A stretch of DNA of 63,932 nt, filler included, from a bacterium (lineage in GTDB: Bacteria > UBP15 > UBA6099 > JAJRTR01), in assembly GCA_024278215.1 (NCBI GenBank). It is 4 parts of 4 records of this genome, joined end to end, with 100 filler letters (N's around TTAATTAATTAA, not from the genome) between each part and the next. Parts side by side here need not be neighbours in the genome. Positions count along the whole stretch, not along the records: positions 1 to 21,708 come from JAJRTR010000053.1; 3 more parts are not named here. One strand, written 5' to 3'. The position numbers were made by a program, and so were the translations under genes. The notes beneath the pieces were generated by a model. That model did no database searches. It was not told the origin of the DNA and was given only the letters and a program-made list of their open reading frames with translations. Below, piece by piece: positions 3-63,932 of this stretch; the first letter of the stretch is position 1; every line of letters starts with the position of its first letter.

Positions 3-845
3 GACCTCATCGTTGTACCGTGTTCGCATAATCAGGATTTATTCAGCCGGTATGTGGCGGATATCCCGGTTGATGTTTGTCTTGAGGGAGTAGAGGTAGA
101 CAAATTCACTTGTTATGCTCGGCAGTTTCCGAAATTATACCGGTTTGTGTTTTACTGGTGTGGCGCGTCGAATCCTCGGAAAGGGTATCACTACACGATT
201 GCAGCATGGGCCGCGTTCAACAACACCCACCCGGATCTAGCAAGTAAAATCCTGCTGTACATGAAAACGACGCAGGTAAGTGATCAAGAACATATTATCG
301 GATACAAGGCAGGCAAGCCGATACGCGAACAGATGCCGCGAGAACGTGTGCTTCAATGCGGCAACGCGCGCATCGATACACGGAAAATCCCCTTCGAAGG
401 TCCTGGGGGACTTATAGAGCAATATCACAAGGCGCATTGTTTCTTGTTTCCGACTATGGGCGAGGGGTTCGGACTGACCTTGGCCGAGGCAATGGCGACC
501 GGTCTTCCTGTCATTTACACGCCCTGGTCTGGGCCGAACGATTTCTGCTCAAGAGCCGAGGGGTTTCCAATTAAATACAGCTTTACGAAAGTAAAGAGCA
601 GGCGCGTTATGAAAGACGGCGAATTCATAGAAGGGTTTGAAAGCTACGCCGCCGACCCGGACGTGAAATCAATCGTGCGCGAAATGTATCGCGTATATAC
701 CAATTACGAGGCCGCGCTTGCGCGCGGACGGCGAGCCGCAGAAAGAATCAGACGTGAGATTACGTGGGATATCAGCGCAAGCAATTTCGCCGAGATCGTG
801 AAAAAACGATATGCAGAAGCTCGCGGGAGGGTGCGTGTTGGATAA
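3..845 (+). CDS. GT4-family glycosyltransferase, phage-encoded, 5'-truncated at window edge
   Basis: Frame is open from position 3. GT-B motifs RKG and FLFPTMGEGFGLTLAEAMATGLPVI. Confidence 0.85.
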   Translation, partial: DLIVVPCSHNQDLFSRYVADIPVDVCLEGVEVDKFTCYARQFPKLYRFVFYWCGASNPRKGYHYTIAAWAAFNNTHPDLASKILLYMKTTQVSDQEHIIGYKAGKPIREQMPRERVLQCGNARIDTRKIPFEGPGGLIEQYHKAHCFLFPTMGEGFGLTLAEAMATGLPVIYTPWSGPNDFCSRAEGFPIKYSFTKVKSRRVMKDGEFIEGFESYAADPDVKSIVREMYRVYTNYEAALARGRRAAERIRREITWDISASNFAEIVKKRYAEARGRVRVG

Positions 846-1500
846 CACCTCCCCAATATGGTTTTTGCATGTCATAAAAACCGGCGGGTCAACGATTTGC
901 GCGCATCTGTCGAGGCACATGCTTGGATATTATGACATCGATATCCCAGAGCTAAGCACAGGCGGGAAAGAAATTTTCCGCTCAGGGCATGCGCTCGTGT
1001 GGCGTCCGGACCGCCGGGTGATAACTATTGTCCGCGACCCGGCAGATTGGCTTGTCTCCGTGTACAATCACGACATGGCCAGGTCTGGGCAGCGTATCTC
1101 ATTCGCGACGTGGTATGACCGGTCGGCTCCGAACAGCGTCAATACGGTTGGGGGGCTGCGAGACCGCATGGTTAAGTGGGCGTCGTATATGTTTCGCCCT
1201 CCTGGGGGAGGGTTGCAGGGACTGATAGATATGTTATCGGAGTGCTGGCTCGTCGGGGTTACCGAGCGACTCAATGATGATCTGCCTGCTCTGTGCCGGT
1301 ATTTGAATGTCCCGACACGGTATCGGAACGAACGGGTAACCGGCGAATTCGACAGATTCGATGGCCGCGAAATCGAGCGGCGATATGAATTGACGGCCGA
1401 AATGAGAACCAAGATTTACAGGGAGAATGCAAGCGACATGGAATTTTATATGCACGCGCGCCGAGTCGCGAAACCGTGGGCTGAGGTTTTAGGGGGATAA
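811..1500 (+). CDS. Sulfotransferase family 2-like protein
   Basis: FLHVIKTGGST (5'-PSB-like), IVRDPADWLVSVYNH (3'-PB-like) and VGVTERL. True start may be GTG835 or TTG838 after GGGAGG. Confidence 0.7.
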   Translation: MQKLAGGCVLDNTSPIWFLHVIKTGGSTICAHLSRHMLGYYDIDIPELSTGGKEIFRSGHALVWRPDRRVITIVRDPADWLVSVYNHDMARSGQRISFATWYDRSAPNSVNTVGGLRDRMVKWASYMFRPPGGGLQGLIDMLSECWLVGVTERLNDDLPALCRYLNVPTRYRNERVTGEFDRFDGREIERRYELTAEMRTKIYRENASDMEFYMHARRVAKPWAEVLGG

Positions 1501-2316
1501 ATGGACGCGAAAATTAGTGTGACGACGAGATGCAACGCTCGCTGCAAGACATGTCCTGTGTGGACGCTCCAGGGCGACGACATGCCTGCTGGCGTGTTTA
1601 AGGAAATATATAAAAAGTTAATGACCGATCCGCGCATTGATAGAATCCTGCTCAACAATACAGGGGACATGTACGTACATCCCGATAGGGCTCGATTGTG
1701 GGAGATTATCGAGGCGACAATGTATAAGCCGGTGATCCTCACGACGAACGCGGCCGAGATGGATTATTGTCCTAAGGTGACGAAAATCATAATTTCGTTT
1801 AACGGCTATGACAAGGCGAGCTACGAATACACTACCGGGCTGCCTTTCGACGAGACAGTGGCGAATATCCGCAGCTTTTACGACGATCTGTCCGAATTGA
1901 ATGCTGAAATCCATACGCTCGCCTGGGGCGACATTTACGTTCCGAACATCGAAGAGCGCGTGCGTGATCTGTGGGGCGATTTCCCCGGGCGCGTTCGCGT
2001 GTCCTACAAGACTGACAATCAACAAGAGCATGACATCCCCGGGGCGCCGGTTCATCAGGCGGAAGCGCGAATACCATGTGATTATTTGGACAAGGTGAAT
2101 ATCTGGCCGGATGGATCAATAATACAATGTGCGCATGATTTCAGGGGCGAGGGAAGGTTCGGTAATATTTTGACAACAAGCGTTTTCGGGTCTATACTAC
2201 ACCCAGACAGGATGAAATTAAAGGCACAGCATGCGGTCGGGGCGTTCCCGGGATTGTGCGCGACGTGTAATTACAACACGCCTACTGACGGCAGGATTGT
2301 GTACGTGAGGGGCTGA
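1501..2316 (+). CDS. Radical SAM protein with SPASM/twitch domain
   Basis: CNARCKTC (CxxxCxxC). C-terminal CDYL..CAHD..FGNI..CATC. Confidence 0.85.
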   Translation: MDAKISVTTRCNARCKTCPVWTLQGDDMPAGVFKEIYKKLMTDPRIDRILLNNTGDMYVHPDRARLWEIIEATMYKPVILTTNAAEMDYCPKVTKIIISFNGYDKASYEYTTGLPFDETVANIRSFYDDLSELNAEIHTLAWGDIYVPNIEERVRDLWGDFPGRVRVSYKTDNQQEHDIPGAPVHQAEARIPCDYLDKVNIWPDGSIIQCAHDFRGEGRFGNILTTSVFGSILHPDRMKLKAQHAVGAFPGLCATCNYNTPTDGRIVYVRG

Positions 2317-2317
2317 C

Positions 2318-2917
2318 ATGGCACTCGACACGACGAACGCGCTCGATACGCTGGCGAATATCAAAACGCATTTGCGTATTACATCCGGGGACACGACGTA
2401 TGACACGCAGCTCGAAACGATGATCGACGGCCTGTCGATAGCGTTCAATCGATACACACGGCGTGACCTTCTTGCGAGAGACAGAACGGATTATTACGAC
2501 GGCGACGGATCGGGCATCCTGTACGTGCATCACTGGCCGATCAATTCCATAACATCATTGCATTATGATACCGACCGGGATTTCGATTCAGATACTCTCG
2601 TGGCGACAAGTGATTATTTCTACAACAAGGATGAAGGTGTTATCGAATTGGAATCCGGCGGGTTTCCTGATGCGAGGAAATGCATAAAACTAGTATCGAA
2701 TGCCGGCTTTACAAGCATCCCTGCCGATCTGCTCATGGCGTTCCGAGATCAAGTCAAAGCACATTGGCGTTGGTGGATGGATAACCTGGAGAAGATTAGG
2801 TCTGTGACGAAAGAATCCGTCAGTTATTCATTCGACAATTCGGTGTTTTTGCCGGTCGTGCAACGGGTATTGGATACATATCGGCGCAAGGGCTACACGG
2901 GGGGCATGACAACGTGA
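2318..2917 (+). CDS. Phage head-tail connector (gp6/gp15-like)
   Basis: TLANIKTHLRI..D..L, YDGDG, AGF..IPADL and VLDTYRR pattern; lies just before the tail genes. Confidence 0.8.
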   Translation: MALDTTNALDTLANIKTHLRITSGDTTYDTQLETMIDGLSIAFNRYTRRDLLARDRTDYYDGDGSGILYVHHWPINSITSLHYDTDRDFDSDTLVATSDYFYNKDEGVIELESGGFPDARKCIKLVSNAGFTSIPADLLMAFRDQVKAHWRWWMDNLEKIRSVTKESVSYSFDNSVFLPVVQRVLDTYRRKGYTGGMTT

Positions 2918-3787: not shown

Positions 3788-4183
3788 ATGCCGGCAACTG
3801 TAGGTAAAGACGGGGGGTTCTATCTCGGCACGTCGCTGTTGACGTTTATCGATTCATGGAGCATTCAGGGGACCATCGGGCATGAAGAGATAACCGGATT
3901 CGGCGATTCAAACGTCAAGCGCACTCCAACGCTGCGCGACTGGAGCGCATCGGCGTCTGGGACGCTCGACAGGTCCGATGCCAACCAGGCGGCGATGCTC
4001 GACCAATTCGAGGACGGGACTATTACGGCGACGAGCGTGCGCCTCTCGACAGAACGAGGGTCCGATTACTGGGAGGGCTCTGCTATCATCGAGTCGTTCA
4101 GCGTCGATGCAACAGTGCAGGGCAAAGTGTCGGTGAGTTTTTCCCTCGTCGCTGCCGATGCGCTGTCGTGGACTGAGGCATAA
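3788..4183 (+). CDS. Major tail tube protein
   Basis: RBS AGGAGG. GKDG, SWS, TGFGD, LRDWSASASG and VSVSFSL beta-rich tube pattern. Confidence 0.75.
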   Translation: MPATVGKDGGFYLGTSLLTFIDSWSIQGTIGHEEITGFGDSNVKRTPTLRDWSASASGTLDRSDANQAAMLDQFEDGTITATSVRLSTERGSDYWEGSAIIESFSVDATVQGKVSVSFSLVAADALSWTEA

Positions 4184-4886: not shown

Positions 4887-6891
4887 AGTTGAAGTTGAAG
4901 TTCTCACGCACACGAACAAATCGAATGCATCCCTGAAAAAATATCTTGGCCTTGTAGCGGCGGCGACGGCGGCAGCCTACGGACTGAAAAAAATCGTTAT
5001 TGACAATGCGAAAGCGGGGCTCAAATACGCAGGCTCAATGGATGCGCTGTCTGCGTCATTCCGAGTATTGTTGCGCAGTGGTTCAGAAGCTGAAATGCTC
5101 ATGGAGAGTCTTCAACAGTTCGCGGCTACGACGCCGTTCCAGATGGAAAAACTAGCGCAGGCCACAAAGGTTCTCATTAATACCGGTACTGACGTGTCGC
5201 GGGTGACGGACGTACTGGAATCGTTGGGAAACGCGGCCATGGGCAATGCGGAGGTCATGGACCGGCTAGTCGATGCGTACTCAAAGCTGCAGACCAAAGG
5301 ACGCGCTTCGCTGGAAGAATTGAATCGTTTTCTCGAAGCCGGCGTGCCGATTTTAGACGAGTTACAAAAGTCCCTCGGCGTGACGAAGGATGAATTATTT
5401 GCAATGATCAGCGCCGGGAAGGTGCAATTCGCCGAAGTAAATAAAGCGCTTGAAAATCTCACCACCGGACAAGGCCGCTTGGCCGGACTCATTAAAGTTC
5501 AGTCGGAAACACTGCCTGGGCTGCTATCGACATTGCGAGATGTTGTGGATCAGATGCGCGGGGGATTCATGGAAGCGTTCCTTCCGGCGCTCAAGGCCGG
5601 GCTCCAAAAACTCATCGGCTGGCTGCAGAAAGCGGCAGAGAATATCAAATCGTGGGCTGAAACGAATCAGGCTACGATTTATGCGATATTTACCAAGTTG
5701 CCTGACATCGTTAAAGCAGTTATGGAGACGGTCGTTTCGATGATCAACACTGCCATGACCGGAACGACGATGGTGAATGTGATGAAAGTGTTCGGGCAAT
5801 ATATCGCCGACGCCATGCGCCTAGGCATTTCGACGCTGCCGTTTATGTTCAAGACAATTTTGTCTGTCGCCGAAGACGTCTGGCGTGCATTCGGCGACAA
5901 TGCTGGGAAATATATAATTAACGGCATAGTAAACGCTATTCTTACCGGCCCGCGATGGGCGACGAAGTTCGTTGGATGGTTGACGGGAAATGAGACCTTA
6001 GAAATAGGGCGAGTCGATTTCTTCGGCGTCGATACTATGCGGGACATGGAGGAGTTTAAGGGGCTTATTGCAAACACGTTCGAGGAAGCCGGCTTAACTG
6101 CGCGCCGTATGGTGGCGCAAAACATGACGAACTGGGCCGATTCGGTGAAAGAGATAGCCGGACTATTCGATGATGACCTGGCAGCCGGAGCCGAGAAAGT
6201 CAATGCGTTGATAGAAGACGGGAAGGCAGCATTCGAGGAATGGAAATCGTCGGCAGAGGATTTCGGCGTCGCTACTGTTGACGCCACTGCCGCAGGGGCC
6301 GAGGCGACAAAAGCTTTGATTATGAGTCAAGAGCGGTCGGTAGATTTGTGGCGCGAAATGATTGTGAAGAACGATGAATTAGAGCAATCATATTATGACT
6401 TGGCAGCCGCAGCGGCGCAGGCGCAACAAAAAGCATTTGAGGAAATGACATCCGATTTATTCGGATGGGCCGGCGATTATCTCGACGTGTTGCGTGAACT
6501 TGGCGTGGCTGAGGAAAAGCTGTTTCAGTATAAAAAAGCAATAGCTCTTGTCGAGGCGACAATCGGCATGTTGACGGCTATTGCTAAAGCGACGACTGTA
6601 TGGGAAAAAGTGGCAGCGCTGACGACAGGGCTGCTGGCAATAGCGAAAATTGGATATGAGCAACCGCCGCCGCCGCCGTCATTTGCGAGTGGCGGAATTG
6701 TAGCCGGCCCTATTACCGCGACGGTTGGTGATGCCGGCCCTATGCGGACGGGGGCGGAAGCGATTGTCCCGCTCGATAGATACGGCGACAGTCCGACTGT
6801 CGTTGTCCACGTCTACGGGACAGTAATCAGTGACGACCAATTACAGGGCGTGATAGTCGGCACCGTGCGGGAAATGCAGCGTGGCTATTAA
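4873..6891 (+). CDS. Tail tape measure protein
   Basis: FAATTPF..KGRASLEELNRF..GVPI tape-measure N-terminal domain, Ala-rich helical body, FASGGIV..GDAG..EAIVPL C-terminus. Confidence 0.9.
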   Translation: MPRDRVEVEVLTHTNKSNASLKKYLGLVAAATAAAYGLKKIVIDNAKAGLKYAGSMDALSASFRVLLRSGSEAEMLMESLQQFAATTPFQMEKLAQATKVLINTGTDVSRVTDVLESLGNAAMGNAEVMDRLVDAYSKLQTKGRASLEELNRFLEAGVPILDELQKSLGVTKDELFAMISAGKVQFAEVNKALENLTTGQGRLAGLIKVQSETLPGLLSTLRDVVDQMRGGFMEAFLPALKAGLQKLIGWLQKAAENIKSWAETNQATIYAIFTKLPDIVKAVMETVVSMINTAMTGTTMVNVMKVFGQYIADAMRLGISTLPFMFKTILSVAEDVWRAFGDNAGKYIINGIVNAILTGPRWATKFVGWLTGNETLEIGRVDFFGVDTMRDMEEFKGLIANTFEEAGLTARRMVAQNMTNWADSVKEIAGLFDDDLAAGAEKVNALIEDGKAAFEEWKSSAEDFGVATVDATAAGAEATKALIMSQERSVDLWREMIVKNDELEQSYYDLAAAAAQAQQKAFEEMTSDLFGWAGDYLDVLRELGVAEEKLFQYKKAIALVEATIGMLTAIAKATTVWEKVAALTTGLLAIAKIGYEQPPPPPSFASGGIVAGPITATVGDAGPMRTGAEAIVPLDRYGDSPTVVVHVYGTVISDDQLQGVIVGTVREMQRGY

Positions 6892-9800
6892 ATCGATCCT
6901 GTCAGATCATCAATCGAATCTCATGACCGGCGCCGGGGGAGATCGCGACGAGCGATTGTACCTCGGGCTGCGTGGAGTGAAATACCCCGACATTGCGAGA
7001 GACACGCGGACATATATCGACCGTGGCGACTGCGAATCTACCACTGCTCCGGCGTTGCGTGGGGAAACAGCGGTTACAACGTCGAATCTTACATTCGCAC
7101 GGTCCGACGATTGGAATCATAGAGGCGCGTACTCGTACAAACTGATCAAGGCGGTCGCAGCGGGGACCGAAGCCTACGTCGCGCTGCAGGATGGAGTGGG
7201 CACCGCCGACATGCACGGGTTTATCGCCGGCGAGACGGTGGAGATGATTGCGTGGCTCAAGTTGCCGTCGTCCGGAGGCCCGCTATCGAGCGAGGTTACG
7301 TTGCGCGTGCAGGAATACTATTCAGGCGCGTGGAACGCGACGACGCTGGACACAGGGAGCGTCGATGCCGGGAACATCGAAAAACTCTCCGGTCGGATCG
7401 CACTCAACGCATCCACGGCTGCAGTGCGATTTGAAATCGTACTCGCCTCTGCTGCGGCAGATACTGAGTACGTCTACGTAGACGATATCGAGATTTATCG
7501 ATATGCCACGTTCACTTTGGCGCGCGAGGACAATTTGGTTGACCGGGGGAATTGTGAGTCGACGACGGCTCCGGCGTTCCGTGGAGAAACATCAGCGGTA
7601 TCAACCAATGCATCGGGCGCGCGCACGGCTGAGGTTGCGCGCAGCGGGAACTATGCATGGCGGGTTACTAAGACGTCGGCTGCCGGCGCCGGTTGGGCTA
7701 GCTGGTATTTTCAGGATTCAGCATCTAATACAGACATGCATGGATTTTCAGCCGGTGAGACATTAGAGGTATCTGCATTTGCAAAGCTGACGTCCGGATC
7801 AAGTCCTGATCCGGGAGAAGTGCGGATGCTATTTGAAAATTACAGATTATCTACAAGCTCTTGGGTTGTGATCGGGGCATCAGCCTACATGTCGGTAAGC
7901 GACGCGTTCGAAAAATTGACACTTACTCCGACAATATCAGATGATGCCCGCGGTATCAGATTGCGAGTACAAATTAATACAAATGCAGGCTTAAACGAAT
8001 ATGTAGATATTGATGACATCCGCGTTACCCGCCACAGCGTCCCCGGCACCCACTATCTCAGCGGCAGCTATACCGAGCACCTGGTCGAGATGCCGGATAA
8101 GTTCACGCTGCAGATTAAGTTCAAGCCGAATTTCGCGTATGATATTGCAACCTCGCAATATATTTGCGGATGGAGAATAGATAGTGCGCATAATCTTGTA
8201 TTATATTATGAGGCTTCAGGCGATAAATTCCAAATTCAATGGATAGACGGTGGATCTGCAAAGTATTTGTTTTCCGCTCAATATGATGATGGCACTACAT
8301 ACCGGAATATCAATCAATGGATTACATTAACATTTGCATTTGATCCGGCATCCGGGCAAACAGGTTCCGCATTATGGCTTAACAAAACACAAGACGATGC
8401 GGATTTCGGCGCAGCCCCAGATAGTAAATCAACATCATTCCAGACGATGCGAATGCGTGAATATAACGGAGTACAAGGCGATATTAATATCGCCTTCATC
8501 CGCCTTTTCCGCAACTACGTGGCCACCGACGCCGATGTTCAGAACGATTTCAAGGACGTCAAGGCCGAGGAGATTTACTGGAGTTTCGACGGACATGCGA
8601 CCGGGCGAACACGGGTCAATGTATCGAGATTCTACGCTCGGCGGATGAAACTCACACGCTCGGTTAAAACCGGCACATCAGGCGCCTACGGAGCGAATCG
8701 ATTTCAATGTGCACTCAAAAATCTGAATGGCGAATTCTCCGACGATCAATATGGGACGTATGATCCTACGACCGACAGTTTTAACGGTGACTCCGACCAG
8801 GCGTATTTGCGCGATAGATTCGAGGTCGAGCTTGAATCGTGGTACTCAGGAGATTTCGATTCGGTGTTCCGCGGCCGTGCAGTAGGTGGGTTGCAACGCA
8901 ATAGCGCGAGAAAGAATGTATCGTGGGTATCGCTGGTTGCGGAAGATCGGTCGGCCGATCTGGCGTCGGCAATCATCACATCCGGGCATGTATTCGAGGA
9001 TTGCAAGCTCGCCGACACCGTGGAGGCTAATTCTCTGTTCCACAGAATTGCACGCCTGGGGCGGCCGACCGTCAAACAATATCTGGCGAATAATTCGTTC
9101 GAGGACGCGACGATTACCGATGCCTGGGTGGCGAGCGGGGGAACATGGACGCGCGAAGCGAACCCTTTATTCGGTACATATTGCGGCCGGCTAGTGCCTG
9201 GGGCCTCGGCGCAGAGCGTGTATCAGGAGATAACGTTTTCCGGCTCTGAAAAGCTGTCCGTTAACCAGGAATTCACGTTTTACGTCTGGCTCTATTCCTC
9301 TGCGGCTGCATCGGGCGCGAACAATTATATCCGGATTGATGAGCGCGATAGTGGAGGATCAAACGATACGACAGATACGTCTATGGCATTGACCGGCGGC
9401 GAGGGGTGGGTGCTCCATCAGGTGACGCACACGATTACGGATGCTGATTCAGACAGATTGCGAATCATCATCGCTGCAGATGCCGGAGACACGATTGATA
9501 TAGACGGGGCCATGTTCGTTGTCGGCGACCGTAAAAATAATGTGTTCCGCGAATCATCGTTGGTATTGACTGATGCCGTGTCGAGCGGGTCGGTGAGTGC
9601 CGATTATCGCGACGAGGTGCAATGGGACGAGTTCGGGTTCGACGCGGCGACGATTGACTATGTGCATCCGTGGCGGCGCGTGGATCAAGGCACGACCGTA
9701 TGGGACCATCTCAAATCCCTGTTCGATGCGGCCATAGTGGATTACGGCGGATTCGACGAGTCTGGGACGCTATTATATCACGGGTATTTAGAGTCCGGAC

Positions 9801-12019
9801 GGTCTGAGCTTATTACGATGCACAAATTCACTGCGTCAGGCTCCGGATATATCCGCAATAGTATCCAGATCGGCATTATAGGAATCGCGGCGAATCGGAT
9901 CATCGGTCACGGAGTTAAAATCGTCAAACACGGCCGGATCGTCTACAAAGCGGCCGGCAATCAGACAATGGTCGTCGCCTCGCGGATTCTGTGGCAGGCA
10001 TCGGCGACCGACCTGTTCGAAGAATCGCTCGAAGGGCTGATTCTCAATGTGACGATTCCTGACGGCGGTTATTTCCCCGACCAGGAGGAGTTCGCCACGT
10101 TCTGGGCGCGCCTCGGGGATGTAGAGGATAAACAGGACCTGTTCAAGCGCCTGTGGGATAGGAGGTATGAGTTTTTTGGCGAGGAACGAGTATTCTTGAC
10201 GCAACCTGTGAACCGGAAATCGATAACAGGATTGCAATCGACCGTAGGATATTTCGGGTCGGTCGGATTGGGCGGGCAGTGGGCGTTGACCGGAGTTTGG
10301 TCGCCGAACGGACCGCTGCTGAAATTGGTCGGCGGTGAACGGCTCATCGGTGTGACCGACGCCGATCTGCTGCACAAGTTGACCGACACGTCGGGGGACG
10401 GCAATTCGGCTCTCACCGAACAAACGATCGGTAATATGGTCGGCGGGCTCGATGTATTGAGCCGTCCCGATCAAGCGCGCATCTTGTTGTATAACGGGAC
10501 CGGAGCGAGTAAAACCATCATCGACGTGGGAATCGTCGGGCGCCCTGTTACGCTGTACGGTGATGATAGCGGATATGTTAATGACCACTATCGGCTCGAC
10601 GAGGATATCGCGCGCAACGGTGAGAAGCCGCTTGAGTTCGGCAATATCGATATCCTCGGCGACGTCAGGGAGGCGAACGACACGAGCAACCCCATACATG
10701 TGGATCGCATATGTGAGTATTGGGCGAAGTTCTGTTTCACGAAAAAGCATTCATATTCATTCGCACAACACGGATCGCGCTTCTGGGTATGCCCAGGGCA
10801 GTGGGCCACGATAGAGGTCGGCTCGTCCGGCGAGGCGGAATACCTCAACAGCAAAGCCTCAATCGCAAGTATTACTATTGATCGCGGTCCCGACGGCATC
10901 GGGAATACGTCTATCGCCGCGGTGGAGGTGCAAGAAGGATTCAAGAGTACGACGACGCGGGATCTGGCGGCATTTCTGGCCTCGGGGATCAAGCCGCGAA
11001 CGCGGCGGACCTCCGTTACCGTCGTGGGCCGATATCATATCGGCGACGCTGATTTCAGGTGTTCAGGGTCTGACGACCAGACAACAATCAATGCGGCGAT
11101 TGATTTCATGTCCGGCGCGTATGGTGGCGGGGAAGTCATCCTCACAGGATATTTTTATCTTTCCGGCGCGATAAAACCGAAAAGCAATATCACATTGCGC
11201 GGCGGAAGCGCAGGGGCTGTCATAGAAAAGAATTGTGATGATTATGCAATATCTGTAAATCAAACACCAGGATCGGAATATTCGAACGTTAGCATCAGGG
11301 ATATGAAAATAACGCGCAATGCAGGAGATACGAACGCAGGGAAGCATCTGCTATATTTCATGTATTGCGATTTATTGTCAATCAGCAACGTCTCGATCTA
11401 TGACTCGTATGCGTATGCATTATACATTTCTTATTGCGATGATGCAACAGTAAATAATGTGTTTGTCCAGGAATGGAATGGAGATAGAGCAGTACAGTTC
11501 GAGCGTTTAACCAGGTTCGTCGTTCGCGATTTGACAGTTGATGGAAACGGCTGTAGCTCGCAATCTGGAGTTGTTTTTGCAGTCGTTACAGATGCAGCGA
11601 TAATCGCAGATTCAATTGAAGTGAGGAACTTTGTTAGTTCAGGAAGCACCACCTATGGGTTCTACACGAATGCAGATAAGATGTCTCTATCAAATATAAT
11701 AGTGCATGATCTAACCAAGTCAACCGATGGATCGATCATTCATGGCATCGCTTTGGATGCTGACGATATAAAGGGCTCTAATCTCACAGTTTCAAATGTA
11801 GATAATACGTATGCCGCTTCCGCCGTTCGAGGCTTGTACGTGCGCGGTGCCGATGTGGTGCTAAGCTCCATTTTCGTATCAGGATGCAGCGGGACGGGTA
11901 TATACATAGATGCCACGTCGTCGAAAACACAGATCGCAGGGGGGAGAACTACCAATAACGGAGTTAATTATAATGACGTTAGTGGATCGGCAAATACGGC
12001 GGCCTTCGATACGACATGA
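6881..12019 (+). CDS. Large multidomain tail tip / receptor-binding protein (CBM-like repeats, LamG-like region, hub region, C-terminal beta-helix)
   Basis: Directly follows the tape measure. Two RG(D/N)CESTTAPA(L/F)RGET..DDI repeats, a third NNSFE..IDG module, and a DDQTTINAAID..SNITLRG pectate-lyase-like start. Confidence 0.8.
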   Translation: MAIKSILSDHQSNLMTGAGGDRDERLYLGLRGVKYPDIARDTRTYIDRGDCESTTAPALRGETAVTTSNLTFARSDDWNHRGAYSYKLIKAVAAGTEAYVALQDGVGTADMHGFIAGETVEMIAWLKLPSSGGPLSSEVTLRVQEYYSGAWNATTLDTGSVDAGNIEKLSGRIALNASTAAVRFEIVLASAAADTEYVYVDDIEIYRYATFTLAREDNLVDRGNCESTTAPAFRGETSAVSTNASGARTAEVARSGNYAWRVTKTSAAGAGWASWYFQDSASNTDMHGFSAGETLEVSAFAKLTSGSSPDPGEVRMLFENYRLSTSSWVVIGASAYMSVSDAFEKLTLTPTISDDARGIRLRVQINTNAGLNEYVDIDDIRVTRHSVPGTHYLSGSYTEHLVEMPDKFTLQIKFKPNFAYDIATSQYICGWRIDSAHNLVLYYEASGDKFQIQWIDGGSAKYLFSAQYDDGTTYRNINQWITLTFAFDPASGQTGSALWLNKTQDDADFGAAPDSKSTSFQTMRMREYNGVQGDINIAFIRLFRNYVATDADVQNDFKDVKAEEIYWSFDGHATGRTRVNVSRFYARRMKLTRSVKTGTSGAYGANRFQCALKNLNGEFSDDQYGTYDPTTDSFNGDSDQAYLRDRFEVELESWYSGDFDSVFRGRAVGGLQRNSARKNVSWVSLVAEDRSADLASAIITSGHVFEDCKLADTVEANSLFHRIARLGRPTVKQYLANNSFEDATITDAWVASGGTWTREANPLFGTYCGRLVPGASAQSVYQEITFSGSEKLSVNQEFTFYVWLYSSAAASGANNYIRIDERDSGGSNDTTDTSMALTGGEGWVLHQVTHTITDADSDRLRIIIAADAGDTIDIDGAMFVVGDRKNNVFRESSLVLTDAVSSGSVSADYRDEVQWDEFGFDAATIDYVHPWRRVDQGTTVWDHLKSLFDAAIVDYGGFDESGTLLYHGYLESGRSELITMHKFTASGSGYIRNSIQIGIIGIAANRIIGHGVKIVKHGRIVYKAAGNQTMVVASRILWQASATDLFEESLEGLILNVTIPDGGYFPDQEEFATFWARLGDVEDKQDLFKRLWDRRYEFFGEERVFLTQPVNRKSITGLQSTVGYFGSVGLGGQWALTGVWSPNGPLLKLVGGERLIGVTDADLLHKLTDTSGDGNSALTEQTIGNMVGGLDVLSRPDQARILLYNGTGASKTIIDVGIVGRPVTLYGDDSGYVNDHYRLDEDIARNGEKPLEFGNIDILGDVREANDTSNPIHVDRICEYWAKFCFTKKHSYSFAQHGSRFWVCPGQWATIEVGSSGEAEYLNSKASIASITIDRGPDGIGNTSIAAVEVQEGFKSTTTRDLAAFLASGIKPRTRRTSVTVVGRYHIGDADFRCSGSDDQTTINAAIDFMSGAYGGGEVILTGYFYLSGAIKPKSNITLRGGSAGAVIEKNCDDYAISVNQTPGSEYSNVSIRDMKITRNAGDTNAGKHLLYFMYCDLLSISNVSIYDSYAYALYISYCDDATVNNVFVQEWNGDRAVQFERLTRFVVRDLTVDGNGCSSQSGVVFAVVTDAAIIADSIEVRNFVSSGSTTYGFYTNADKMSLSNIIVHDLTKSTDGSIIHGIALDADDIKGSNLTVSNVDNTYAASAVRGLYVRGADVVLSSIFVSGCSGTGIYIDATSSKTQIAGGRTTNNGVNYNDVSGSANTAAFDTT

Positions 12020-12411
12020 CGCGGAAATTTTTAGTTACTGCCTTGTTCGCCATGATGTGGACGATTACATCCTGCGTTTTTGTCGACGAACAGCTTCTTA
12101 TCGCGATTGAGGAGGCTCGGTGGGTGTATTTGAATATCATGCAGGTTCCGTCATATGAAATAATCAAGCATCCGATTGAGACGATGGAGGACGGAGAAGG
12201 TGATTGTGCCGACATGTCCGCTTTGCTGATTGTTCGTATGCGGCGCCGGGGAGTTTTTGCCGGCCAGCTCGTTGCATATGACGTAGGTGCGGACGTTGCC
12301 CATATGGTAGTCGAGATATTCGGGGTGACTATCGACCCGACGAACAAGGATATCGTTGTGACGATTGATGGGACCGAGATCGGGCGCTATTTATGGATAT
12401 CATGGCTGTAG
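12016..12411 (+). CDS. Putative lipoprotein with transglutaminase-like Cys-His-Asp fold
   Basis: Signal peptide with ITSC lipobox-like motif; GDCAD, HM and IDPT motifs. Confidence 0.6.
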   Translation: MTRKFLVTALFAMMWTITSCVFVDEQLLIAIEEARWVYLNIMQVPSYEIIKHPIETMEDGEGDCADMSALLIVRMRRRGVFAGQLVAYDVGADVAHMVVEIFGVTIDPTNKDIVVTIDGTEIGRYLWISWL

Positions 12412-21708: not shown

Positions 21709-21808
21709 NNNNNNNNNNNNNNNNNNNNNNNNNNNNNNNNNNNNNNNNNNNNTTAATTAATTAANNNNNNNNNNNNNNNNNNNNNNNNNNNNNNNNNNNN
21801 NNNNNNNN
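21709..21808. other. Artificial contig spacer
   Basis: N44-TTAATTAATTAA-N44, which has stops in all six frames. Confidence 0.97.
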
Positions 21809-32596: not shown

Positions 32597-32680
32597 GAAG
32601 ATAAATGGGGCGCGCTTTACAGCACAACGAATCCTGTCAAAGAGGACGAACGCTGGAGCAAGGCACAACTTCTCATTACT

Positions 32681-32858
32681 GAGCCAATTGCAAAATTCTG
32701 ATTCTGCTGCGGTCGGCTGCAATTGTCCATAGCTGCGTTGTCAGCACAAAATCATCCTCGACGTACTCGATGAGTATGCCTGCGGGGATTTTGCCCCTCC
32801 GCCTTGCTACGAACAATTTTGCTCGACCTCGCTACGAACATAATGTGGCAATTGGCTC
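32681..32858 (-). mobile_element. MITE family A, 178 bp
   Basis: TIR GAGCCAATTGC, 4-bp TSD TACT; reverse-complement homolog of 62857-63034. Confidence 0.85.
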
Positions 32859-41401: not shown

Positions 41402-41501
41402 NNNNNNNNNNNNNNNNNNNNNNNNNNNNNNNNNNNNNNNNNNNNTTAATTAATTAANNNNNNNNNNNNNNNNNNNNNNNNNNNNNNNNNNNNNNNNNNN
41501 N
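41402..41501. other. Artificial contig spacer
   Basis: N44-TTAATTAATTAA-N44. Confidence 0.97.
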
Positions 41502-60877: not shown

Positions 60878-60977
60878 NNNNNNNNNNNNNNNNNNNNNNN
60901 NNNNNNNNNNNNNNNNNNNNNTTAATTAATTAANNNNNNNNNNNNNNNNNNNNNNNNNNNNNNNNNNNNNNNNNNNN
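60878..60977. other. Artificial contig spacer
   Basis: N44-TTAATTAATTAA-N44. Confidence 0.97.
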
Positions 60978-62856: not shown

Positions 62857-63034
62857 GAGCCAATTGCAAAATTATGTTCGTAGCGAGGTCGAGCGAAATT
62901 GTTCAGAGCAAGGCGGAGGTGTGAAATCCTCGCAGGCGTACTTGTAGAGTACGTCGAGGACGATTTCGCGCCGACAACGCAGCTATGGACAATAGCAGCC
63001 GACCGCAGCAGAATCATAATTTTGCAATTGGCTC
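62857..63034 (+). mobile_element. MITE family A, 178 bp
   Basis: Perfect 20-bp TIR GAGCCAATTGCAAAATTATG and 4-bp TSD ATTT. Confidence 0.88.
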
Positions 63035-63129
63035 ATTTGGTTGAAATATTACAACAAGCTTAATCACCAGCAAGATAATCCACATTTAAAGCAACGCACC
63101 CGACAAGCAATCCCGAGAGGGAGGAAGAT

Positions 63130-63763: not shown

Positions 63764-63932
63764 GAGCCAATTTCAAAATTATGTTCGTAGTGAGGTCGAG
63801 CGAAATTGTTCAGAGCAAGGCGGAGGTGTAAAATCCTCGCAGGCGTACTTGTAGAGTACGTCGAGGACGATTTCGCGCCGACAACGCAGCTATGGACAAT
63901 AGCAGCCGACCGCAGCAGAATCAGAATTTTGC
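63764..63932 (+). mobile_element. MITE family A copy, cut by window end
   Basis: Near-identical to 62857-63034, same orientation. Confidence 0.85.

Follow-up and report, generated by a model that had tools for sequence, protein, structure and literature searches.

Related systems

The closest described systems are found in mycobacteriophages, whose capsid and tail tube are reported to be glycosylated (PMC11600133). The Che8 capsid carries an O-linked modification (PMC13445384). In cluster O, the enzymes are encoded between portal and protease (gp35–38 of Corndog) and are present in infected cells, not in virions (PMC4351075). In cluster J, an insertion of 8–10 genes lies between the capsid and the head-tail connector, and its content varies between phages (PMC3706429).

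The locus described here is found at the beginning of a window of 63,932 nt (the whole stretch of DNA that was analyzed), made of four contigs with N spacers between them; positions 1–21708 correspond to contig C23. It contains genes for a glycosyltransferase (GT4), a sulfotransferase and a radical SAM enzyme (rSAM). As in Che8, which belongs to cluster F1, the glycosyltransferase is encoded by the phage (PMC11256854, PMC11600133, PMC13445384, PMC10877033). The Che8 targets are the capsid and the tail tube, with an O-linkage, and the same targets may apply here. There are also differences: neither a radical SAM enzyme nor a sulfotransferase is described in the available portions of the Che8 papers, the F1 glycosyltransferases lie near the 3' end of the genome, and in our case no mycobacterium is established as the host. 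Clusters O and J resemble our locus in having a glycosyltransferase and tailoring enzymes within the head module, and cluster J even uses the same slot. Nevertheless, their available descriptions list several glycosyltransferases, SAM methyltransferases and a kinase, while we find a single GT4, a twitch rSAM and an exchangeable sulfotransferase, methyltransferase or SDR. The first-pass annotation had stated that some actinophages encode virion glycosyltransferases in structural regions. This is correct for clusters O and J, but not for the cluster F1 phage Maravista, whose glycosyltransferases are placed near the 3' end of the genome.

A soluble phage glycosyltransferase co-located with virion genes is the feature which our locus shares with systems of the Che8 and Corndog kind. 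Judging from position and enzyme class, the cassette would work like mycobacteriophage virion glycosylation, with different enzymes. In the literature searched, we have not found a description of a core made of GT4 and a twitch rSAM to which an exchangeable sulfotransferase is added.

Position of the three genes

Contig C23 is of phage origin throughout, as indicated by Pfam and PHROG matches: it encodes adaptor, neck, tail tube, tape measure, tail protein, endolysin and holin, and also Erf, exonucleases, a replication initiator and RuvC. The three ORFs have the previously annotated coordinates, all on the + strand: GT4 at 3..845 (open at its 5' end), the sulfotransferase-like gene at 811..1500 and rSAM at 1501..2316. 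The close packing noticed before is also correct. GT4 and the sulfotransferase overlap, the sulfotransferase and rSAM abut (TAA-ATG), and there is only one base between the stop of rSAM and the start of the head-tail adaptor gene (2318..2917, + strand; phrog_442, E 6e-19; PF05135), which is the right boundary of the cassette. Their packing and position suggest that the three genes share a late transcript. We have not detected a promoter of the cassette's own, as promoter and terminator counts are at chance level; a hairpin 3' of the capsid stop has a z of -1.84. The GC and GC3 values of the three genes resemble those of the structural genes. None of the three proteins has a transmembrane segment, and the hydropathy of GT4 (maximum KD19) is 1.08, versus 2.15 in the holin control.

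The window starts at a contig end. The last 315 nt at the 3' end of another contig, C29, are identical to positions 1–315 of the window at 313 of 315 positions. The genes of C29 are, in order, DNA methyltransferases, FGE-like repeats, ParB-like, Mom-like, terminase, portal-MuF, protease and major capsid, followed by a 53-aa zinc-ribbon-like ORF and by the start of GT4 at position 11663. The major capsid gene (phrog_10) is outside the window, at 10107–11447 of C29 (locus L001); its product ends in TAAS and is the candidate first acceptor. Since the capsid gene is found toward the end of C29, and C29 overlaps the window, the three genes are placed between the major capsid and the head-tail adaptor. 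C29 is thus the upstream contig whose recovery the first-pass annotation had suggested, with terminase, portal, protease, major capsid and GT4 at its end. The possibility that the join near 2317 is chimeric may be discarded, because the rSAM–adaptor junction recurs, as in the window, in dozens of independent contigs. A capsid search through the host phylum (13 genomes) matched this genome alone, so the phylum supplied no prophage control.

The three enzymes

The window contains the C-terminal 280 aa of a GT4 of about 366 aa; the 5' part of the gene is found at 11663–11918 of C29. Three Pfam models match above their cut-offs (PF00534, PF13692 and PF20706, GT1 / GT4-conflict), as does phrog_2170 (E 2e-21). 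The EX7E motif is at nt 462–488, with both Glu kept in 33/34 aligned rows. A GT1-type domain together with this motif makes the protein a retaining glycosyltransferase of the GT4 family, with a GT-B fold. Among 50,697 GenBank phage records, GT4 has matches of about 21–26% only, with relatives in actinophages: the Kitkat and Magritte copies are just 5' of tail genes, those of Weasels2 and Kenrey are beside ribonucleotide reductase. No match to rSAM was found in the same records. Locus searches with a single GT4 or rSAM sequence found no viral relatives, an alignment is required as query. NCBIfam has nothing above cut-off, and the ESM Atlas matches are unnamed viral radical SAM/SPASM clusters with no function given.

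The second gene (811..1500, + strand) codes for a PAPS-dependent sulfotransferase of the carbohydrate (HS2ST/HS6ST-like) type. Its probable start is GTG 835 or TTG 838, after GGGAGG. The 5'-PSB motif (KTGxT) is at nt 868–894, with K23 in 34/35 rows, and the 3'-PB motif (R..S) is at nt 1033–1065, with R75 and S83 in 35/35 rows. Single-sequence Pfam scores are below cut-off, one relative passes it. The family profile matches heparan sulfate 6-O-sulfotransferase in the PDB (E 4e-9). Fold searches with the model (pLDDT 94) give only sulfotransferase-superfamily structures among the matches listed, the heparan-sulfate enzymes first, with a TM of about 0.5. Both motifs and the fold thus agree in the assignment. 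The heparan sulfate 2-O, 3-O and 6-O sulfotransferases are alike in fold and in both PAPS-binding motifs, but the phage protein is soluble and has about 220 aa and 12–19% identity. The sulfotransferase alignment is too diverse for a locus search, therefore its range is known from the loci anchored on rSAM or GT4 and from 143 protein matches. Genes for ATP sulfurylase and APS kinase, which could supply PAPS, are present in the genome bin; CysD was not found there. These genes may not belong to the true host of the phage, since we have found no integrase, no host flank and no convincing spacer-like match that would link the phage to the bin.

The third gene (1501..2316, + strand) codes for a twitch-type radical SAM enzyme of 271 aa, similar to BtrN. 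It has a CX3CX2C motif at aa 11–18 and auxiliary-cluster cysteines at 193, 210, 253 and 256. There are 93 homologs of similar length, and these seven cysteines (CX3CX2C and four C-terminal) are invariant in 78/78 aligned rows. Motifs, alignment with BtrN and fold all indicate a twitch enzyme, with CX3CX2C and a domain for one four-Cys auxiliary cluster. BtrN, the butirosin dehydrogenase (PDB 4M7S/4M7T), is a twitch enzyme with a four-Cys auxiliary cluster, which oxidizes an aminocyclitol (PMC9012708, PMC10337720). It is alike in size, in the N-terminal CX3CX2C and, Cys for Cys, in the auxiliary cluster. It is the sole sequence match of the rSAM profile in the PDB, a weak and partial one (E 7e-8), with the four auxiliary cysteines aligned. 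The rSAM model (pLDDT 94.7) superimposes on BtrN with a Z of 17.3 (rmsd 2.8, 193 residues), and the two are 17% identical when aligned by structure. Nevertheless, several peptide-modifying SPASM enzymes equal or exceed BtrN by fold: SuiB (Z 19.0), SkfB (18.2) and anSME (17.9). A BtrN-type dehydrogenase is a candidate suggested by the best sequence match, itself weak, and not singled out by fold. The phage enzyme also differs from BtrN in its late-gene context, and the likeness is one of size, motifs and fold.

Radical SAM epimerases of the NeoN/EpeE type have an invariant extra Cys as H-atom donor. We have considered this type and rejected it, as no Cys beyond the seven is invariant: at position 139, 58/78 rows have Cys, but our protein has Thr. 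BtrN likewise has no invariant extra Cys.

Conservation of the cassette

A search with the rSAM alignment gave 80 loci (30 viral, 47 metagenome, 3 genome). Together with the window, a profile match is found in 80/81 of them, and they form 48 clusters at 90% identity. Forty of these, with at least 290 bits, are the close family. GT4 is found near rSAM in 37/40 close clusters, the three misses have less than 1 kb of upstream sequence. Both flanks, capsid and adaptor, are seen in 23/40. A sulfotransferase is found in seven close clusters, a methyltransferase in seven and an SDR in four. The cassette is therefore a core of two genes, GT4 and rSAM, with an exchangeable tailoring slot; there is no fixed trio. 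The placement within the virion structural operon which the first-pass annotation described is confirmed, with capsid genes on the 5' side and conserved synteny of GT4 and rSAM between capsid and connector. The sulfotransferase as a constant member is not, as it is present in only 7/40 clusters. The fear that homologs might occur only in bacterial polysaccharide loci is dispelled by the capsid–adaptor synteny found in phages. In the eight weaker clusters, rSAM is beside polysaccharide genes in 6/8 cases, which suggests that the family originated in bacterial polysaccharide loci.

The slot may change between close relatives. For example, the rSAM proteins of L029 and L026 have 94% identity, and what distinguishes the two loci is a clean insertion of 660 nt, the sulfotransferase gene. 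In the case of L017 and L042 (92%), an SDR is present in L042, where no more than a short piece of the sulfotransferase is left. In a tree of 45 rSAM rows, where bootstrap is unsettled and short and near-duplicate rows were excluded, the sulfotransferase label has 6 changes, at least 4 of them forced by well-supported branches, and its clustering is no greater than in shuffles. The partners found in the slot are enzymes that work on sugars: SDR epimerase, GDP-mannose dehydratase, Man-6-P isomerase, TylF/FkbM methyltransferases and GT2/GT9. Two natural fusions were detected, each as a single sequence in one contig: GT4–sulfotransferase (P0123) and sulfotransferase–rSAM (P0159). These fusions would tie all three enzymes to one pathway. 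Another GT4, in L139, has a C-terminal extension with no Pfam match, which we take to be an FkbM-like methyltransferase. A sulfotransferase is also found with GT4, without this rSAM, in L134, L139, L155/156, L158 and L161.

The association may also be seen from the capsid side. A search anchored on the capsid gave 44 loci, 19 of them in contigs absent from the rSAM search. GT4 is directly 3' of the capsid in 13 of these 19 contigs, four end too early and two have no GT4: L088, where the tail tube is directly next, and L103. A third search, anchored on GT4, confirmed 501 relatives in IMG/VR, of which 80 were kept and 43 mapped. A second unrelated rSAM family, B12-rSAMs and further sugar enzymes are found in the slot among the mapped loci. 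A second recurring site also appears, between tail terminator and tail tube, directly 5' of the tail-tube gene. It is found in L024, L049, L145, L155 and L158–L162, in L021 as a second GT4, and in the cultured phages Kitkat and Magritte.

Candidate acceptors

Both sites are next to a gene for an abundant structural protein. The second candidate acceptor is the major tail (tube) protein, encoded at 3788..4183 (+ strand; phrog_1407, PF06199), with Ser and Thr near its C-terminus. A Ser or Thr is found in the last four residues of 46/48 capsid clusters followed by the cassette, a single clade of capsids, versus 4/10 reference capsids without glycosyltransferase, which are few and distant controls (about 25–30% identity). 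The proportion is 1/5 in the capsids of tail-site phages, 25/26 in tail tubes, for which there is no control set, and 40/184 in other genes of the same loci. In virion glycosylation of the Che8 and Corndog kind, the site is reportedly C-terminal on capsid and tail tube, according to Freeman in 2023. We consider the Ser/Thr tails as a suggestive sign of the acceptor only, since the residue window was picked after viewing the ends and the capsids belong to a single clade. There are also counter-examples: despite a related glycosyltransferase upstream, neither Kitkat gp31 nor the major tail protein of Magritte has a C-terminal tail rich in Ser/Thr, as their last five residues include no more than one Ser.

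Proposed function

The most likely function, to which we give a probability of roughly 0.7, is O-glycosylation of the C-termini of capsid and/or tail tube, where the sugar would be oxidized by radical chemistry and, in some phages, also sulfated. The idea of a virion glycan, already present in the first-pass annotation, gains support from the capsid genes 5' of the set and from the conserved synteny. From their position and overlaps, the three soluble enzymes would be produced alongside the head and tail proteins. GT4 would move a sugar from a host NDP-sugar onto a Ser/Thr hydroxyl in the tail at the C-terminus of the major capsid protein, and probably onto the tail tube as well; its enzyme class is established, its acceptor is a candidate. 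The twitch rSAM might then take an H from a carbinol carbon of the sugar, either as NDP-sugar or already attached, to yield a ketone, as BtrN does. Family and cofactor motifs are clear in this case, and for the reaction itself the odds are about even. Where a relative has an SDR as partner, this enzyme may reduce the ketone again, to give the epimer. Finally, the sulfotransferase would put sulfate from host PAPS on the sugar: its class is established and, granted the glycosylation, the sugar is a fairly probable acceptor. Relatives which exchange the sulfotransferase for a methyltransferase or an SDR, or lose it, would have different coats on the same capsid, and such swapping suggests that whatever reads the surface of the virion exerts selection on it.

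Direct modification of protein is the main rival for the rSAM step. GT4 would still glycosylate a virion protein, while rSAM and/or the sulfotransferase would act on the protein itself, by anSME-like Ser/Thr oxidation, cross-linking or sulfation of Ser, Thr or Tyr. The peptide-modifying SPASM enzymes among the top fold matches and the co-location with abundant structural proteins would agree with this. We consider it unlikely, as the four C-terminal cysteines correspond to a single auxiliary cluster of the BtrN type, as far as the available description goes (PMC9012708), the rSAM model of 271 aa has no leader-binding extension, carbohydrate sulfotransferases rank first, and both the slot alternatives and the neighbors of distant relatives are sugar enzymes.

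The first-pass annotation had also proposed modification of DNA or of the host surface, and both proposals have lost ground: a C5-methyltransferase is present in only 1/5 cassette-bearing genomes, base-activating enzymes have no matches in two complete relatives, and membrane segments are absent. In the first case, a sugar would be added to a base of the phage DNA before packaging, then edited and sulfated. GT-B enzymes are able to glycosylate DNA (Pyle et al., bioRxiv 10.1101/2023.12.21.572611), and upstream of its terminase C29 encodes a C5 methyltransferase, another DNA methyltransferase and a Mom-like gene. Nevertheless, the known pathways, as far as the same source describes them, pair the glycosyltransferase with a C5-methyltransferase and 5mYOX/TET, or with a thymidylate-synthase homolog (10.1101/2023.12.21.572611). 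Among the five cassette-bearing genomes, the complete G014 is one of those without a C5-methyltransferase, and the 83 non-structural ORFs of G014–G016, many of them without a family, gave no hydroxymethylase, ThyS or integrase match. A Tet_JBP search in five genomes had no match, and its control likewise gave none. The cassette goes together with capsid and tail-tube genes, not with replication genes, and DNA hypermodification appears very unlikely.

A moron whose products change a glycan or receptor on the host surface, for superinfection exclusion or serotype conversion, is slightly less probable still. The descent of the rSAM family from polysaccharide loci points in this direction, as do L052, L053 and L067, which keep rSAM and GT4 with a GDP-mannose dehydratase apart from head genes. 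On the other side are the soluble proteins, the GC and GC3 values typical of structural genes, promoter counts not above chance, the fixed position within the late operon, and the absence of integrase matches in the window phage or two complete relatives. Gtr-type morons are membrane proteins with lysogenic expression near attP and integrase. Lacking transmembrane segments and an integrase match, the cassette is not a serotype conversion moron of this type.

The least probable reading is that the enzymes act in late infection on a small molecule (a modified nucleotide sugar, a host defence signal), which they would either produce or inactivate: GT4 matches the Pfam model GT4-conflict and the substrates of BtrN, BlsE and SpeY are small molecules, but the strict adjacency to capsid and tail-tube genes and the C-terminal Ser/Thr tails would be left unexplained.

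Significance of the proposed virion glycosylation

Taking virion glycosylation as the function, a broader proposal may be made, which we hold as tentative, with somewhat less than even chances: a widespread, uncultured siphophage clade of about 35–40 kb would coat its capsids with an rSAM-edited sugar, and the exchange of one gene would decide which mark the sugar finally bears (sulfate, methyl, epimer or none). If so, phages would have their own counterpart of serotype variation. The surface of the phage studied here would be sulfated and heparan-like, and in the literature searched we have not found such a glycan chemistry described for a bacteriophage. Virion glycosylation is reportedly documented in few actinophages and thought to be rare elsewhere, a view attributed to Freeman in 2023. 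What the cassette suggests is a compact system in unrelated environmental phages, near-universal in the sampled loci of the clade, in which radical chemistry and sulfation are combined. Its swappable slot offers natural experiments: sister phages 92–94% alike in rSAM, with and without sulfotransferase, may help to find what reads the phage surface. The cassette also offers a three-gene toolkit with a defined short peptide as candidate substrate, testable in E. coli without phage culture. Its rSAM represents a new twitch family, whose reaction is likewise open to testing.

In-frame TGA codons in the upstream contig

The portal and capsid genes of C29 contain one in-frame TGA each. The portal site is Gly in 18/25 rows of relatives, the capsid site is variable, with Gly in 8/34 rows. 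We have ruled out a code in which TGA is Gly, because the trio and neighboring genes use TGA as true stops and because the two mismatches in the C29/C23 overlap are likewise of G versus T. In fact, both have G on C23 and T on C29, so the in-frame TGA codons and the mismatches are likely to be G-to-T errors or to correspond to a second strain.

Genes associated with the cassette

The slot linked to the GT4 gene is, in other loci, also occupied by other radical SAM enzymes. A second family, of about 275 amino acids and unrelated to the rSAM of the cassette, is found in this position in related loci, and a B12-dependent radical SAM enzyme is present in L172, L184 and L186. Together with these, the loci which have one or the other are L097, L109–L111, L134, L164–L169, L173, L175 and L181.

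In L002, the closest relative, a homolog of a small transglutaminase-like gene (L002 1064–1513) is placed between GT4 and the sulfotransferase. In the window, this gene (12016–12411) lies 3' of the gene for a 1712 amino acid tail protein (6881–12019), which has a C-terminal beta-helix region and gives no PHROG match.

Two GT4 genes in related loci (L055 278–2125 and L148 5098–6909) contain an insert of about 240 amino acids at the same site. A LAGLIDADG match is found in L055, and the insert is probably an intein.

A sigma-70-like promoter match (11/12) is found near the end of the rSAM gene (window 2170–2198), 120 nt 5' of the adaptor. Promoter-like matches are at chance level overall.

The upstream phage contig

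In C29, the upstream phage contig, genes for two DNA methyltransferases and for a Mom-like DNA-modifying protein are found 5' of the terminase (L001 959–2440 and 5168–5800). A FGE-sulfatase/C-type-lectin-like gene is also present: It is separated from its own C-terminal segment, and the flanking ORFs show four diverged versions of this segment (L001 2642–4178). We take this array to resemble the variable-tip cassettes that serve as DGR targets.

In-frame TGA codons are found in the portal (L001 7846–7848) and major capsid genes (L001 11145–11147). In the overlap with C23, the phage contig of the window, two mismatches have T in C29 and G in C23 (L001 12030 and 12126). A G-to-T change on C29 would account for all four sites, which is compatible either with damaged bases or with a second, defective strain.

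Host contigs

Artificial N spacers (window 21709–21808, 41402–41501 and 60878–60977) join C23, C24, C26 and C68. The window past 21708 is host DNA, placed beside the phage by this joining, and need not adjoin it. At its end, C24 carries 140 nt that recur without a mismatch, in inverted orientation, at the start of C68. A MITE/REP-like element of about 180 bp (window 32680–32858, 62857–63035 and 63764–63932) has many copies over the host contigs, with 80–99% identity.
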